Positions 43,061 to 47,292 of a stretch of DNA of 64,000 nt are shown here, piece after piece. The translations under genes and the position numbers were made by a program. The stretch lies in NCBI RefSeq assembly GCF_056712565.1, contig NZ_CM160072.1. The stretch is one strand, 5' to 3'. The notes below the pieces were generated by a model. That model was not told the DNA's origin. It did not search any database and saw nothing but the letters and a program-made list of their open reading frames with translations. The first letter of the stretch is position 1, and each line of letters opens with the position of its first letter.

Positions 43061-43345
43061 ATGCCTTTAGCAGCCAAACTTACCGACAAAGGCACCCAGC
43101 ACGACGGTTATTACGAGACCGTCATCACCGCCGGGTCATCCACCGTTTTTATCGATGGTCTCCCCGCAGCCCGTCAGGGAGATCCGCTGACGCCGCATGC
43201 TAAACCGAAGCATCCACCTCATCCCCGAAAAATCGCCAGAGGCTCGTCAACCGTCTTTATTGACGGCCTGCCCGCCGCCAGAACCGGTGATGCTATTGAC
43301 TGCGGCGGCGTGGTTATTGGTGGCGGCACGGTAAATATAGGCTGA
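43061..43345 (+). CDS. PAAR-domain protein (T6SS spike tip)
   Basis: 94 aa ORF with strong RBS (aggagg); contains the literal PAAR motif twice (GSSTVFIDGLPAARQGD and GSSTVFIDGLPAARTGD); immediately upstream of vgrG. Confidence 0.8.
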   Translation: MPLAAKLTDKGTQHDGYYETVITAGSSTVFIDGLPAARQGDPLTPHAKPKHPPHPRKIARGSSTVFIDGLPAARTGDAIDCGGVVIGGGTVNIG

Positions 43346-43363
43346 TATGTCTGAGAGGTATTT

Positions 43364-45769
43364 ATGTCCTTAAAAGGTCTTCGCTTTACGCTGGAGGTTG
43401 ACGGCCAGGAGCCGGACACCTTTGCAGTGGTGAGCTTCCGGTTAATCCAGAACCAGTCTTATCCGTTTGTGATGAGTGTGGATGTCGCCAGCGATTCTTT
43501 TATGCAGACGGCGGAGATGCTGCTGGAGAAGAACGCAACGCTGACTATCTGGCAGGGTGTCATCCCGCTGCGTTATGTCACAGGCGTGGTGGCAGGGTTT
43601 GGTATGCAGGAGAACAACGGCTGGCAGATGCGTTATCACCTGCGTATTGAGCCGCCGTTATGGCGGTGCGGGCTGCGGCGGAACTTCCGTATCTTCCAGC
43701 AGCAGGATATCCGGACGATATCGGCCACATTACTGAACGAGAACGGCGTCACGGAGTGGACGCCGCTGTTTTATGAGGACCATCCGGCGCGGGAATTCTG
43801 TGTCCAGTACGGGGAAAGCGACCTGGCGTTTCTGGCGCGGCTGTGGGCGGAGGAGGGGATTTTCTTCTTTGAGCGGTTTGCGGCGGACAGTCCGGAGCAG
43901 AAGCTGACGCTGTGCGACGATGTGGCGGGGCTGTCACAGGCGGGGGAGCTTCCGTTTAACCCGGACACATCGGCAGGAGCGGAGACGGAGTGTGTCAGTA
44001 TGTTCCGTTATGAGGCGCATGTCCGCCCGTCATCGGTGCAGAGCCAGGATTACACGTTTAAGGTGCCGGACTGGCCGGGGATGTATGAGCAGCAGGGTGA
44101 GAGCCTGAACGGACAGCTTGAACAGTATGAAATATTTGATTATCCGGGAAGGTACAAGGATGAACAGCACGGCAAGGATTTCACGCTGTACCGGATGGAG
44201 AGCCTGCGCAGTGATGCGGAAAAGGCCACAGGGCAGAGTAATTCGCCGAAGCTGTGGCCGGGGACGTGGTTTACGCTGACGGGGCATCCGCAGAAGATGC
44301 TGAACCGTGAATGGCAGGTGGTACAGAGCATTCTGTCAGGAGACCAGCCGCAGGCGCTTCACGGCAGCCAGGGGAGAGGAACCACGCTGGGAAATCAGTT
44401 AGAGGTGATACCGGCGGACCGGACGTGGCGTCCACGGCTGCAAAGCAAACCGAAGGTGGACGGGCCACAGAGCGCCATTGTCACCGGGCCTGCGGGAGAG
44501 GAAATCTTCTGTGATGAACATGGCCGGGTACGGGTGAAGTTTCACTGGGACCGTTATCACGGGATGACGGAGGAGAGTTCGTGCTGGGTGCGTGTGTCGC
44601 AGGCGTGGGCGGGGCCGGGATTTGGTAATCTGGCGATACCGCGGGTGGGCCAGGAGGTGATTGTTGATTTTCTGAACGGGGACCCGGACCAGCCGCTGGT
44701 CATGGGCCGGACGTACCATGAGGACAACCGTTCGCCGGGGGACCTGCCGGGAACGAAGACGCAGATGACGATACGGTCGAAGACCTATAAAGGAAGCGGT
44801 TTTAATGAGTTGCGCTTTGAGGATGCGACGGATAAGGAACAGGTCTATATCCACGCGCAGAAGAACATGGACACGGAGGTACTTAACGACCGGACGACGG
44901 ATGTGAAACATGACCATACGGAGACCATCGGGAACGACCAGAAGATAACGGTGGTGAAGGGGCAGACGGTTCAGGTCGGGACCAGAAAAGAAGGGGGCCA
45001 CGACCAGAGTATCACGGTGGCGAACGACCGGTGCATCACGGTACGTAATGACCAGACGCTGCAGGTGACGAATGACCGGACGGTGAGCGTGAGTAATGAT
45101 GACGGCCTGTACGTCAGAAATGACCGTAAAGTGACGGTGGAAGGGAAGCAGGAGCATAAGACGACGGGGAACCATGTCAGCCTGGTGGAGGGAAAGCACA
45201 GCCTGGTGGTGAAGGGGGACCTGGCGAGGAAGGTGAGTGGCGCGCTGGGGATAAAGGTCGACGGGGATATCGTGCTGGAGAGCAGCAGCCGGATAAGCCT
45301 GAAGGTGGGTGGCTCGTTTGTGGTCATCCATTCAGGGGGCGTGGACATCGTCGGGCCGAAAATCAGTCTCAATAGCGGCGGTAGTCCGGGGACGCCGGTG
45401 CCGGCGCTGCAACCGACGGTGCTGAAGACACTGGGGGATGAGAAGAGTGGTGATGGCAGTGATTCCGGAGAAGAAAATGAAGACTCTGGAGGGAACTGCG
45501 TGACCGGAAGTGGTGGTGATGATCGAGGTGACGATGAGGATGAACCTGAAAAATATACTCTCCAGTTCCATTTTACAGACGATGACGGGATACCGTATTC
45601 AGAAACCCGCTACATTGCCTTCTTTGAGGATGGCACGCAGACCCACGGAGAAACGGATGAAGAGGGGTATACAGAGCGTTTTTTTGTATCTAGCAAACAT
45701 GAAATTAAAGTGAAGTTGCTATTTGCGAATGATGATTTTCTCTCAATGGAAGGACACTATGGACGATAA
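43364..45769 (+). CDS. vgrG: type VI secretion spike protein VgrG with acidic linker and C-terminal extension domain
   Basis: 801 aa ORF; VgrG-like N-terminus (MSLKGLRFTLEVDGQEPDTFAVVSFRL...), gp5-like beta-helix octapeptide repeats (VTNDRTVSVSNDDGLYVRNDRKVTVEGK...), then a Gly/Asp/Glu-rich linker and about 70 aa C-terminal domain. Confidence 0.9.
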   Translation: MSLKGLRFTLEVDGQEPDTFAVVSFRLIQNQSYPFVMSVDVASDSFMQTAEMLLEKNATLTIWQGVIPLRYVTGVVAGFGMQENNGWQMRYHLRIEPPLWRCGLRRNFRIFQQQDIRTISATLLNENGVTEWTPLFYEDHPAREFCVQYGESDLAFLARLWAEEGIFFFERFAADSPEQKLTLCDDVAGLSQAGELPFNPDTSAGAETECVSMFRYEAHVRPSSVQSQDYTFKVPDWPGMYEQQGESLNGQLEQYEIFDYPGRYKDEQHGKDFTLYRMESLRSDAEKATGQSNSPKLWPGTWFTLTGHPQKMLNREWQVVQSILSGDQPQALHGSQGRGTTLGNQLEVIPADRTWRPRLQSKPKVDGPQSAIVTGPAGEEIFCDEHGRVRVKFHWDRYHGMTEESSCWVRVSQAWAGPGFGNLAIPRVGQEVIVDFLNGDPDQPLVMGRTYHEDNRSPGDLPGTKTQMTIRSKTYKGSGFNELRFEDATDKEQVYIHAQKNMDTEVLNDRTTDVKHDHTETIGNDQKITVVKGQTVQVGTRKEGGHDQSITVANDRCITVRNDQTLQVTNDRTVSVSNDDGLYVRNDRKVTVEGKQEHKTTGNHVSLVEGKHSLVVKGDLARKVSGALGIKVDGDIVLESSSRISLKVGGSFVVIHSGGVDIVGPKISLNSGGSPGTPVPALQPTVLKTLGDEKSGDGSDSGEENEDSGGNCVTGSGGDDRGDDEDEPEKYTLQFHFTDDDGIPYSETRYIAFFEDGTQTHGETDEEGYTERFFVSSKHEIKVKLLFANDDFLSMEGHYGR

Positions 45770-46520
45770 TAATCAAACTTCTGGACAACCAAAGCCAGAG
45801 CCAGAAGAATGTGTGAAAGAGCAAAAAATAACAGATCATTTTAAAATAATGATTGATAAGGCTCGTAAGGCACAAAAGTTGGTTTTGATAAAAAGAGCAG
45901 ATGATCTTTTGAGATGGGGAGCACAGGAGGAATATGATTTCAGTAAGATCTTTGGTGTTAAAGGAAATAAGGAGGTTAATATAAGAAAATATGGACATAA
46001 TACAGGTAGGCGCATGAATGCTAGATTTCTTATGATGGATGGTGTGAGAAGATTAATGATTATAGCTAATGATTTAACAATGAGCAGTTTTATAAATTAT
46101 ACAGGTTGTAATGAATTTGCAGCATTCGTCAGCCCAAGTAAGGATATGCCCTATATAATTAACATAGGCGCAAAATTTGAGTATAGAGATGGCAAAAAAA
46201 ATCCAGTAACGGGAAAGGATTCTCATGTTGCTACTTTATGTCATGAAATGTCTCATATTCAGTGGTATTATGGGGATAATAAAAAAGGTGGTATGTGGTC
46301 ACAGGATTATACAACTACTGATAAATATTCAACGTGCAAAGAGGATGAAGTTTCATATGACGAACATATCCGTATTGCAACTAAACTGATCTCTAAACAA
46401 AAAGATCAAATATTTGAGAATGCATATAACATAGAAAGATATTTTGAAATAAGATTAATTGAAAGTGAGATAGACTCGATTGATGATGAAATATTAAGCA
46501 ATTCAGTTAAGAAAAAATAG
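45759..46520 (+). CDS. putative T6SS cargo toxin with HExxH zinc-metallopeptidase-like motif (family unassigned)
   Basis: AT-rich ORF in track 45723..46520; probable ATG at about 45759 (AGGA RBS) overlaps the vgrG stop; contains TLCHEMSHIQWYYGD (HExxH); no signal peptide; directly downstream of and co-oriented with vgrG. Confidence 0.55.
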   Translation: MDDNNQTSGQPKPEPEECVKEQKITDHFKIMIDKARKAQKLVLIKRADDLLRWGAQEEYDFSKIFGVKGNKEVNIRKYGHNTGRRMNARFLMMDGVRRLMIIANDLTMSSFINYTGCNEFAAFVSPSKDMPYIINIGAKFEYRDGKKNPVTGKDSHVATLCHEMSHIQWYYGDNKKGGMWSQDYTTTDKYSTCKEDEVSYDEHIRIATKLISKQKDQIFENAYNIERYFEIRLIESEIDSIDDEILSNSVKKK

Positions 46521-46572
46521 CGGAATTAGAAAAAGCACTTCTCCATTAACTAATAAGTCGAGAAATATATTA

Positions 46573-47292
46573 ATGCTGCAAGCTATAAAAAAAATCATAA
46601 TAATGACAATCGTAAATATTATATTTTTCTATTCCTTTCAATCGACTGCGGATGAAATGGTTTTAATAAAAAAATACGGGTTTGGGCTTGAGAGAGATAT
46701 CAAAGGAAGGCCATTAATTTATCCTATCGAAAATTATGATGAGTGTAAGAAAAAATGCAATCATATGAATTATATAGCGGATGTCAATGCTCAATTAGCT
46801 ATGAGTAAAAAAAATAACAGGATTTTTGCTAACATAACCTTTACTAACAATAGCTCTACCACGTATTTTTTTTCTAAATATTATCTACCTATGAAAGTAA
46901 AAGATGGAAAAGGAGATGAATATGATGCGATATGCAAAAAACCATTCAGAATCAACTCTGGGAATATCACGTTGGACTACTTAGGTGGTTCATGTCCTTT
47001 TGAAATTAATACGAATCCTGAACGGTGGAATACTATTAAACCAGGTCGTAGTTTTTTGTTGAGTATAACCTTAAATGATATGTATGCCTTTATACCAGGA
47101 GATAATTATTATTTTATAAAATCATCTGGCTATAAATTTGTTAATGACAAGTGGTTTACACTCAAATCAATCAATAATATTTTTCTTTATTTTTTAAATT
47201 TAAAAATTAATTGTGCTGATGATTTTTTTGATATTAATAATTTTACTACATGTAATAATTTGTTATTGGATGAAAAAAACACTTTTTATTAA
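46573..47292 (+). CDS. candidate cognate immunity protein (N-terminal signal peptide or membrane anchor; family unassigned)
   Basis: 239 aa very AT-rich ORF immediately downstream of the putative toxin; hydrophobic N-terminus MLQAIKKIIIMTIVNIIFFYSFQSTA; Cys-containing, Asn/Lys/Tyr-rich; role inferred from position only. Confidence 0.4.
   Translation: MLQAIKKIIIMTIVNIIFFYSFQSTADEMVLIKKYGFGLERDIKGRPLIYPIENYDECKKKCNHMNYIADVNAQLAMSKKNNRIFANITFTNNSSTTYFFSKYYLPMKVKDGKGDEYDAICKKPFRINSGNITLDYLGGSCPFEINTNPERWNTIKPGRSFLLSITLNDMYAFIPGDNYYFIKSSGYKFVNDKWFTLKSINNIFLYFLNLKINCADDFFDINNFTTCNNLLLDEKNTFY

Follow-up and report, generated by a model that had tools for sequence, protein, structure and literature searches.

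[quoted passage not shown] M35-PAR is toxic to E. coli when expressed from pET22b, a vector described in the methods as periplasm-targeting, and co-expression of the adjacent downstream gene, AKO63_2956, removes this toxicity; in addition, the DUF2345 domain was shown to mediate effector loading in this system (PMC10673891). Among free-living proteases, the AsaP1-type enzymes are secreted zymogens in which signal peptide, propeptide and protease form a single chain, and AsaP1 itself is a virulence factor (PMC7215534). Another VgrG-linked zinc metallopeptidase that targets the periplasm and is countered by periplasm-exposed immunity is the C-terminal domain of VgrG2b, or Tpe1-Tpi1 (Wood et al. 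2019, PMC6899460). Orphan and in-cluster vgrG islands with diverse effector-immunity pairs directly downstream, as in the locus described here, are found among the E. coli “VT” modules; in the part of PMC6730261 that summarises Ma et al. 2018, VT1 is assigned an amidase and VT5 a lysozyme-like enzyme.

The window, that is, the whole 64-kb stretch of DNA analysed, contains four same-strand genes at 43061-47292 in the order PAAR, vgrG, gene 3 (effector) and gene 4 (immunity), as shown in Table 1. The original prediction of a tightly packed, co-directional island with an abrupt AT-rich switch after vgrG agrees with the measured values: 18 nt separate PAAR from vgrG, gene 3 starts within the end of vgrG, a 52-nt gap lies between gene 3 and gene 4, and the G+C content drops from 57.5% in PAAR and 56.7% in vgrG to 32.4% in gene 3 and 27.4% in gene 4 (50.2% in the whole window). 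The module is an auxiliary E. coli T6SS unit of an ordinary, previously annotated type, consisting of a spike tip, a spike, a zinc-protease toxin and an antidote in the periplasm. A single feature of it is new: the antidote shows kinship with the built-in inhibitory propeptide of the protease family to which the toxin belongs. The AT-rich region upstream of PAAR forms the island's left border and is probably the promoter region; the sigma-70-like sites at 42642-42669, 42688-42717 and 42868-42896 are matches to the consensus only and no proof of function. At the right edge, the place of the ISAs1 fragment is occupied in K-12 by the H-repeat genes yncI' and ydcC.

Table 1. Positions of the island features in the window
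Feature	Position	Strand	Basis or remark
Intergenic region, AT-rich (33.5% G+C)	42521..43060	.	Between frameshifted yncG and PAAR; composition
PAAR protein, 94 aa, spike sharpening tip	43061..43345	+	NF033420; RefSeq WP_001127493.1
VgrG spike, 801 aa	43364..45769	+	TIGR03361; Pfam domains
Effector (gene 3), 253 aa, aspzincin-fold Zn metallopeptidase	45759..46520	+	HEMSH, profile homology
A6 homopolymer	46512..46517	+	One A fewer than commoner allele
Immunity protein (gene 4), 239 aa in window allele	46573..47292	+	Sec signal peptide, propeptide-like core
A7 (47273-47279) and T5 (47283-47287) homopolymers	47273..47287	+	Full-length 273-aa allele: A8, T6
Out-of-frame remnant of conserved immunity C-terminus (…FINQLWAIEDEKNSIYVTPDEISISIDGDNLKLPY)	47288..47392	+	ORF 47213-47392
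ISAs1 (H-repeat) transposase fragment	47470..47613	+	RefSeq annotation; island right edge

The identities proposed for the two spike proteins, which RefSeq also annotates as PAAR and VgrG in APEC O1, are confirmed by matches above the curated cut-offs. The PAAR protein contains two literal PAAR motifs and matches NF033420 (E 5.5e-47, 157.8 bits against a cut-off of 124), and VgrG matches TIGR03361 (E 9e-181) and has the canonical Pfam domains Phage_GPD (34-327), Phage_base_V (385-451) and Gp5_trimer_C (468-621). The gp27/gp5 core and β-helix of VgrG reach to approximately residue 690 and are followed by an acidic Gly/Asp/Glu linker (approximately residues 690-727, nt 45431-45544). The last approximately 74 aa (nt 45545-45766) form a C-terminal domain to which no family or fold could be assigned and for which a sequence search of the PDB returned no match. 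Residues 1-398 differ by one substitution from the VgrG of the APEC O1 main cluster, and the two sequences diverge past approximately residue 540. The VgrG of M35-PAR, which belongs to another T6SS cluster type, has Pfam T6SS_Vgr and DUF2345, whereas the window VgrG has the acidic linker and the 74-aa domain in place of DUF2345. No Pfam DUF2345 (PF10106) match is found in the window VgrG, whereas the VgrGs upstream of the M35 homologues P0024 and P0027 have one, and because M35-PAR needed this domain, the way in which it is loaded cannot simply be carried over to gene 3.

The mechanical open reading frame of gene 3 begins at TTG 45723; from the RefSeq start, ATG 45759, the gene shares 11 nt with the end of vgrG, stop codon included, and this start is preceded by an AAGGA-type ribosome-binding site. 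The HEMSH motif occupies residues 162-166 (nt 46242-46256), and all of 19 family members share H162, the catalytic glutamate E163 and H166; Asp183 (nt 46305-46307) is likewise invariant in the family. Asp183 lies 9 residues past the second histidine in short members, as in GfMEP, whereas a loop insertion extends this distance to 17 residues in the window protein. The aspzincin consensus GTxDxxYG is not kept, and the sequence NAYNIERYF is located near the C-terminus. The match of gene 3 to Pfam PF14521 (Aspzincin_M35) falls short of significance alone (E 0.0049, 17.7 bits), and a precomputed PF14521 match is present in 2 of the 30 homologues among those listed. Despite this weak single-sequence score, profile-profile comparison with AsaP1-like protease domains (E 1.4e-12) points to clear homology to the aspzincins, and the test for the aspzincin fold found that gene 3 has it: it shares the fold, and apparently the HExxH-plus-Asp arrangement, with the catalytic halves of AsaP1 (Aeromonas salmonicida, PDB 2x3a), GfMEP (1g12) and deuterolysin (1eb6). 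The original prediction had left the cargo in an unassigned family, which no longer holds, with gene 3 named “peptidase M35” by RefSeq in APEC O1 and gene 4 placed with the aspzincin propeptide. Unlike the secreted M35 proenzymes, the gene 3 chain contains neither a signal peptide nor a propeptide.

Membership of gene 3 in the VgrG2b C-terminal domain/Tpe1 family was considered and rejected. The latter belongs to a thermolysin-like clan with Glu983 as the third zinc ligand, in contrast to the invariant Asp here, and gene 3 has no sequence or fold match to VgrG2b residues ~830-1019. Additionally, the VgrG2b toxin is fused to VgrG, and its immunities, which are lipoproteins or membrane-anchored proteins, are unrelated to gene 4. 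The equating of the M35-PAR toxin with the VgrG2b C-terminal domain in PMC10673891 is likewise not supported by the present results.

Gene 4, a “hypothetical protein” in the RefSeq annotation of APEC O1, has no match in Pfam or NCBIfam profile searches. Its Sec signal peptide (residues 1-26, nt 46573-46650) comprises KK, a hydrophobic stretch and the junction STA/DE; the N-terminus contains no lipobox cysteine, and the protein has six cysteines. The core (residues 82-175, nt 46816-47097) exhibits both a β-sandwich fold and sequence-profile similarity to the AsaP1-type prodomain: alignment with the AsaP1-like proenzyme propeptide gives an hhalign E of 7e-9 and a score of 61.6, against a shuffle maximum of 16.1. 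The immunity core is thus homologous to the propeptide half of the AsaP1-type enzymes and differs from it in having a signal peptide to itself and additional elements at both termini. In addition, the K-R loop pair of the propeptides (K in 59 and R in 58 of 60) is absent from the immunity family, in which the aligned loop reads C-x-(F/Y), so that the inhibitory contact may differ from that of the propeptide.

Both cargo genes are present as shortened alleles. The missing A in gene 3 places the stop 10 codons early (253 aa instead of 263 aa), an allele carried by 151 of the 519 genomes having that stretch; because distant members end directly after NAYNIERYFE, the 10 lost residues lie outside the core. 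The window allele of gene 4 is rare (31 of 629 genomes having that stretch) and lacks a C-terminal element that is conserved family-wide and modelled with high confidence. The out-of-frame ORF downstream matches the C-termini of P0031, a Salmonella homologue and the family consensus, and the loss of this conserved tail of ~37 residues makes full function of the window immunity protein uncertain.

In every context examined, which covered Salmonella core and orphan loci, E. coli core loci, another enterobacterial locus and the same slot of strain SCU-125, the effector homologue starts in the last codons of vgrG and is followed by the gene 4 homologue. Identities to the window proteins at syntenic loci are 89% for VgrG (a core-cluster VgrG bearing homologous cargo), 57-63% for the effector and 42% for the immunity protein, and more distant immunities align with gene 4 at hhalign E values of 1e-58, 9e-60 and 1e-44. 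M35-PAR is a P0024-type member because the published primers are exact matches to the gene of P0024 (locus L006, 6001-6020 and 6769-6789). With 30% identity (E 4e-23), P0024 and gene 3 belong to the same effector family, AKO63_2956 belongs to the same immunity family as gene 4 (hhalign E 1e-58), and the two loci share the vgrG-effector-immunity order with the effector start overlapping the vgrG end. However, the identity to the window pair is only 30% for the effector and 24% for the immunity protein.

The window is colinear with APEC O1 1542689-1606688 (99.96-100% identity), where the annotation runs from ynbB to fdnH. No tss core genes are present within the 64 kb. In APEC O1, which is near-identical over this length and stands in here for the window's own genome, the T6SS at aspV is annotated as complete (tssA, B, C, E, F, G, H, J, K, DotU/TssL and M, in addition to hcp and vgrG). 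This cluster, together with the near-identity of residues 1-398 of the orphan VgrG to those of its VgrG, supports the earlier proposal that the module uses a T6SS encoded elsewhere. The K-12 slot content given in the original prediction also proved correct (K-12 has yncH, rhsE', ydcD, yncI', ydcC and pptA there), and the slot is hypervariable as proposed, with contents that differ between strains. The module is common in E. coli: at least 80% of it is present in 473 of 5426 complete genomes, and the 4.2-kb allele is 100% identical in the 22 best-matching complete genomes, with 149 records matching at 99% or more. Among the carriers listed are many extra-intestinal and avian pathogens, for example APEC O1, S88 and NU14. 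In the same slot, O145 carries a shortened vgrG and only fragments of the effector and immunity genes, and strain SCU-125 has kept a pseudogenised, orphan copy of the window-type immunity gene after replacement of the effector; effector-immunity cassettes are swapped at this slot with an orphan immunity gene left behind.

With good confidence, the four genes can be regarded as an auxiliary spike-and-cargo T6SS module with a periplasm-acting aspzincin toxin and a Sec-exported, propeptide-derived immunity protein. The module would depend on a T6SS located outside it, which in the near-identical APEC O1 lies at aspV. PAAR would cap the VgrG trimer, and because the N-terminal two thirds of VgrG are practically those of the main-cluster VgrG, the spike should fit the same baseplate. 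The C-terminal extension of VgrG (β-helix end, acidic linker and 74-aa domain) is the likely dock for the translationally coupled gene 3 product, a predicted aspzincin-type zinc endopeptidase without the signal peptide and inhibitory propeptide of free-living relatives such as AsaP1. We infer that the effector would travel with the spike into the periplasm of nearby Gram-negative cells and may there cleave an envelope protein or peptide, and that the gene 4 product, exported by Sec to the producer periplasm, would neutralise effector arriving from sister cells. Because its core descends from an aspzincin propeptide, the gene 4 protein most probably does in trans what the propeptide does in cis, namely block the active-site cleft. 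Periplasmic toxicity and rescue by the downstream gene were shown for the 30%-identical homologue pair (PMC10673891), and by analogy may be expected of the window pair.

The module could instead be a decaying remnant in this lineage, in which recognisable genes persist by linkage only, without active toxin delivery or immunity. Such decay would account for the -1 homopolymer frameshifts in both cargo genes relative to the commoner alleles, the loss of the conserved C-terminal element of the immunity protein, the frameshift in the adjoining yncG and the flanking ISAs1 fragment; the rarity of the truncated gene 4 allele fits it, and other strains are clearly decayed at the same slot (the O145 fragments and the SCU-125 immunity pseudogene). 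Nevertheless, we consider it unlikely: PAAR, VgrG, the entire effector catalytic domain and the propeptide-like core of the immunity protein are intact, the residues lost from the effector are outside its core, the 4.2-kb allele is shared without change by the 22 best-matching genomes and at 99% or more by 149 records, and in APEC O1 the annotation shows a complete main T6SS. The effector might also act mainly as an anti-host virulence protease against eukaryotic cells, with gene 4 as a mere safeguard, by analogy with AsaP1, a toxic extracellular protease and virulence factor of a fish pathogen (PMC7215534), which has the same fold; the many extra-intestinal and avian pathogens among the listed carriers are consistent with this role. 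The main use of a Sec-exported cognate inhibitor, however, would be to shield the periplasm from effector delivered by sister cells, and in the periplasm the homologue M35-PAR is lethal to E. coli (PMC10673891). Cassette replacement that leaves an orphan immunity gene is, moreover, the pattern of an inter-bacterial arms race. Host-directed and antibacterial roles are compatible with each other, but a mainly anti-host function appears improbable.

Propeptides can also serve as folding chaperones. This property, in addition to the lack of a Pfam or NCBIfam match, could suggest that the gene 4 product is not an immunity protein but is secreted to assist the protease, as an accessory, adaptor or co-effector. 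We regard this as highly improbable, because the signal peptide on gene 4 and its absence from the effector place the two proteins in different compartments of the producer, co-expression of the homologue AKO63_2956 abolishes M35-PAR toxicity (PMC10673891), and an orphan copy is retained once the effector has been replaced.

Gene 4 being read as the periplasmic immunity protein, the presence of an aspzincin without a propeptide in gene 3 and of a propeptide-homologous core in gene 4 makes the effector-immunity pair look like a split zymogen: the halves that form a single chain in the AsaP1-type enzymes are separate genes in the window, and the protease half, lacking a signal peptide, would be exported on the T6SS spike, whereas the AsaP1-type enzymes are secreted as zymogens. 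We lean slightly towards a history in which the gene of an ancestral, secreted aspzincin proenzyme split in two: the catalytic half lost its signal peptide and now rides the T6SS spike, and the propeptide half kept or regained a signal peptide and became a trans-acting periplasmic immunity protein that inhibits as the prodomain does. Within the literature library searched, no paper combined “T6SS” and “aspzincin”. If this history is true, it would document how a T6SS immunity protein evolved from the intramolecular inhibitor of the toxin itself, and would suggest a general search strategy in which the prodomains belonging to a toxin's enzyme family are screened for immunity proteins.

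The island comprises four co-directional genes (PAAR, vgrG, the effector gene, referred to as gene 3, and the immunity gene, gene 4), and all four ORFs are present where the original prediction placed them. The tight packing that it described also holds upon measurement: PAAR and vgrG are separated by 18 nt, the ATG of gene 3 overlaps the vgrG stop by 11 nt, and the distance between genes 3 and 4, predicted as about 50 nt, is 52 nt. The mechanical ORF call starts gene 3 at TTG 45723; the RefSeq start, ATG 45759, has an AAGGA-type ribosome-binding site upstream. The abrupt shift toward AT-rich composition is evident as well, with G+C contents of 57.5% for PAAR and 56.7% for vgrG, followed by 32.4% for gene 3 and 27.4% for gene 4, and 50.2% for the entire window. 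A promoter and terminator scan gave consensus-level matches only.

Coordinates of the island genes, the homopolymer tracts and the features at the right edge
Feature	Coordinates	Strand	Remarks
PAAR	43061-43345	+	ORF call; RefSeq in matching genomes: PAAR protein
vgrG	43364-45769	+	ORF call; RefSeq: Vgr family protein
Gene 3	45759-46520	+	RefSeq ATG start; "peptidase M35" or "M35 family metalloendopeptidase"
Gene 3 tract	46512-46517	+	A6; stop 10 codons before that of the A7 allele; 253 versus 263 aa
Gene 4	46573-47292	+	ORF call; RefSeq: "hypothetical protein"
Gene 4 tracts	47273-47287	+	A7 and T5; product of 239 aa versus 273 aa for A8T6
ISAs1 (H-repeat) transposase fragment	47470-47613		Marks the island's right edge; likewise in the K-12 Rhs element
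71-aa ORF, WP_000470661.1 (hypothetical)	47691-47906		In the place of pptA in K-12 and the O145 strain

The window is colinear with positions 1542689-1606688 of E. coli APEC O1 at an identity of 99.96-100%, and the APEC O1 annotation of this span, which runs from ynbB through fdnH, contains no tss core genes, in agreement with what had been predicted. The 4.2-kb island is 100% identical in the 22 best-matching records, including APEC O1, S88 and the type strain ATCC 11775, and NU14 and two other records exhibit marginal differences only. At least 80% of the island is present in 473 of 5426 complete E. coli genomes. In ExPEC/APEC-type E. coli, this auxiliary T6SS module is common and has already been annotated.

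The proposal that this module is served by a T6SS encoded elsewhere is supported by the near-identical APEC O1, in which a complete cluster adjoins tRNA-Asp (aspV) and contains tssA, B, C, E, F, G, H, J, K, DotU and M in addition to tagH, vasI, two hcp genes, a vgrG and a PAAR-like gene. PAAR and VgrG of the island match NF033420 and TIGR03361, respectively, both above the curated cut-offs. In Pfam, Phage_GPD, Phage_base_V and two stretches of Gp5_trimer_C cover VgrG up to residue 621, beyond which the end of the beta-helix is followed by an acidic Gly/Asp/Glu-rich linker (approximately residues 690-727) and a 74-residue C-terminal domain that has no match in Pfam or among PDB sequences and that we would guess to be transthyretin-like. 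A comparison of the orphan VgrG with the VgrG of the APEC O1 cluster (660 aa) reveals a single different residue over positions 1-398 and divergence past approximately residue 540. The baseplate part is thus the same and the cargo end different, as would be expected if the two spikes were alternatives serving one machine. "VgrG2" of porcine ExPEC PCN033 (Zong et al.) was considered as the same module and rejected, being a protein split into 541 aa and 158 aa that is 99% identical to the in-cluster VgrG1.

The slot between yncG and yddH was expected to be hypervariable, and its contents indeed differ among K-12, SCU-125 and an O145 strain. K-12 carries yncH, rhsE', ydcD, yncI', ydcC and pptA, which include the four genes that had been named. 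In E. coli SCU-125 (NZ_CP051700.1; locus L014, 1-5377), the same types of PAAR and VgrG occupy the slot, the last 189 VgrG residues being 77% identical, and the cargo consists of another effector of the same family (32% identity) and a dedicated immunity gene; behind the latter lie an orphan, pseudogenised immunity gene of the window type and the same ISAs1 fragment, the picture given when one cassette replaces another and the old immunity gene stays behind as an orphan. In E. coli O145:NM FWSEC0002 (locus L016, 795-5668), the island is decayed: vgrG is truncated, the effector gene survives as a 90-aa "peptidase M35" fragment and the immunity gene likewise as a fragment, a piece of a C39 peptidase is also present, and pptA is kept. 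In the main cluster of APEC O1 (locus L013, 29458-36846), the genes behind vgrG are a DUF2169 gene, one for a PAAR-like protein and a small ORF, after which come ISAs1 fragments. A 96-aa ORF product, WP_000513317.1, is common to this cluster and the O145 slot, which suggests that cargo is exchanged between the main T6SS cluster and the slot. At the left of the island, yncG (glutathione S-transferase family; 41920-42520) is frameshifted in this lineage, being split into two ORFs in the window and marked as a pseudogene in the APEC O1 RefSeq annotation; K-12 and the O145 strain have an intact copy.

The two cargo proteins, which had not been assigned to a named toxin or immunity family from sequence alone, can now be placed: gene 3 is an aspzincin by profile, and gene 4 matches the aspzincin propeptide by profile-profile comparison. 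Direct searches return little. NCBIfam gives no match for either gene, and the Pfam matches are all below threshold (Aspzincin_M35, E 0.0049, and Peptidase_M91, E 0.023, both for gene 3, and DUF4352 at 0.015). Thirty homologues of gene 3, mostly enterobacterial, were found. In an alignment of 19 members, H162, E163 and H166 (HExxH), C161 and D183 are invariant, as are N221, A222, Y223, N224 and R227 of a C-terminal NAYNIERYF motif that is nearly invariant throughout. The family profile matches only aspzincins in the PDB (AsaP1, 2x3a, E 1.8e-6; Grifola peptidyl-Lys endopeptidase, GfMEP, 1g12, E 1.3e-3), and against 60 protease domains of the AsaP1-like kind the profile-profile probability is 97.7%, with an E of 1.4e-12. 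The invariant Asp lies nine residues past the second His in the short family members, a spacing equal to that of GfMEP in the alignment, and an eight-residue insertion is present in this loop of the window protein. The gene 3 protein contains neither a signal peptide nor a propeptide; its first 16 residues are disordered, and between them and the catalytic core lies a conserved helical hairpin (26-65).

The gene 4 protein contains a Sec-type signal peptide without a lipobox and six cysteines, and it has no match in NCBIfam, Pfam or the PDB, the last in both single-sequence and profile searches. A word-indexed search returned near-identical E. coli sequences only, and an exhaustive HMMER search was required to find the family, which comprises 84 representative clusters with a typical length of 270-310 aa. 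Identities of 42% are observed both for the Salmonella homologue, which lies behind an effector homologue, and for that of an E. coli core cluster. Relatives in strain SCU-125 and at the loci of the effector homologues P0024 and P0027 are recognized by hhalign with E values of 1e-44, 1e-58 and 9e-60, respectively.

The relationship of gene 4 to the propeptide was seen first in a fold search and then by profile-profile comparison. The fold search matches AsaP1 (2x3a), a proenzyme that includes its propeptide; the mature-only aspzincins 1g12 and 1eb6 (deuterolysin), which are in the same library, are absent among the matches, which indicates that the matched part of 2x3a is the one these two structures lack, namely the propeptide. 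Because an AsaP1-fragment query gave short fragments without propeptides, full-length proenzymes were taken from a metagenome contig and a scan of genome contigs, which yielded a full-length AsaP1-like gene and 72 related loci from species-representative genomes, respectively. The recovered gene aligns with AsaP1 across propeptide and protease, and mature GfMEP aligns from its residue 229 onward. Propeptide and protease alignments were built from the 60 proenzymes without internal stops (59 loci and the query). On metagenome contig SRR27421202_4575 (locus L017, 1710-4261), two AsaP1-like aspzincin genes occur in tandem, the first with a frameshift that separates its propeptide and protease parts.

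The immunity family aligns with the propeptide half at a probability of 95.8% (E 7e-9, score 61.6) over 83 columns corresponding to gene 4 residues 82-175, and no alignment with the protease half is obtained (probability 0.1%). The effector family exhibits the opposite pattern, aligning to the protease half and not to the propeptide half. In the controls, 150 column-shuffled propeptide alignments reach a maximum score of 16.1 (mean 11.1, sd 1.8), and the reversed alignment scores 15.3. Immunity family and propeptides have in common the pattern TN-S ... LP ... F-(I/V) ... (Y/F)-G ... (W/F)-(I/V)-PG-S ... L-Y. These profile comparisons make the immunity family a homologue of the propeptide by which proteases of the effector's own family are inhibited. 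The main difference lies in the loop past (Y/F)-x-G, in which K and R are nearly invariant in AsaP1-like propeptides (59/60 and 58/60), whereas the immunity family conserves a Cys and an aromatic residue there, as C-x-(F/Y), perhaps because the inhibitory contact or the S1' specificity differs. The AsaP1 structure paper of Bogdanovic et al. in FEBS Lett 2016 is said to describe intramolecular inhibition by the propeptide. The island itself is already annotated; the propeptide-immunity homology is the new part, as far as the searchable literature, in which no earlier report was found, shows.

A related pair has been studied in E. coli PAR, whose locus contains vgrG, a separate DUF2345 gene, M35-PAR (AKO63_2955) and the immunity gene AKO63_2956 (PMC10673891, Communications Biology 2023). 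A blind scan of E. coli PAR did not find AKO63_2953-2956, and the link was settled by the cloning primers in the supplement of that study, which match the P0024 gene exactly at both ends (20 nt at its start, 21 nt at its end). Since P0024 is homologous to gene 3 (30% identity, E 4e-23), one member of the family that includes the window pair has been tested experimentally. The same study equates M35-PAR with the C-terminal metallopeptidase domain of VgrG2b. That domain is thermolysin-like, with Glu983 as the third ligand (Wood et al., PMC6899460), whereas the M35-PAR family is aspzincin-like; as both the family profile and the gene 3 model match aspzincins only, VgrG2b-Cter/Tpe1 is regarded as a functional analogue and not a relative. 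The two appear to be unrelated, which corrects the published equation.

In E. coli, expression of M35-PAR from pET22b, described in the methods as periplasm-targeting, is toxic, and M35-PAR bound VgrG only via DUF2345 (PMC10673891). A role of gene 3 primarily as an anti-host protease is improbable beside this antibacterial toxicity and would in any case be compatible with the main model. A member of the gene 4 family lies downstream of the effector homologue in every context examined. Co-expression of the downstream neighbour AKO63_2956 abolishes the toxicity (PMC10673891); that gene 4 is an accessory and not an immunity protein is thus very hard to credit.

A further reading, that the island is a decaying remnant, draws on the -1 homopolymer frameshift alleles that both AT-rich cargo genes carry in the window. 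The A6 allele of gene 3 occurs in 151 of the 519 complete E. coli genomes carrying the stretch, and the residues it removes lie beyond the end of distant family members, which leaves the catalytic core untouched. The A7T5 allele of gene 4 is rarer (31 of 629 complete genomes carrying the stretch), and A7T6 gives a third reading. The lost gene 4 C-terminus, readable out of frame as far as 47392, is a helix and hairpin that is conserved family-wide and modelled with pLDDT >90; without it, the immunity gene of the window lineage may be impaired. Taken as a whole, decay of the island is considered unlikely, if less so than the two readings of the cargo genes. The alleles matter in practice for cloning from ST95-type strains because the immunity gene of these strains is the truncated form.

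In the favoured model of an effector-immunity module, the PAAR-VgrG spike would use the aspV T6SS, and the effector would load on the distinctive VgrG C-terminus, which the translational coupling fits, with its conserved N-terminal helical hairpin as the putative docking element. The effector would reach the periplasm of neighbouring bacteria and cleave an envelope substrate, and the Sec-exported gene 4 protein would shield kin as a prodomain acting in trans. The locus itself is routine, with one member of its cargo family already tested. Its lasting value lies in a lead on mechanism and evolution, the homology between the immunity family and the propeptide, which provides a concrete, testable model of immunity action and an example of how a toxin-antidote pair may originate by zymogen splitting.
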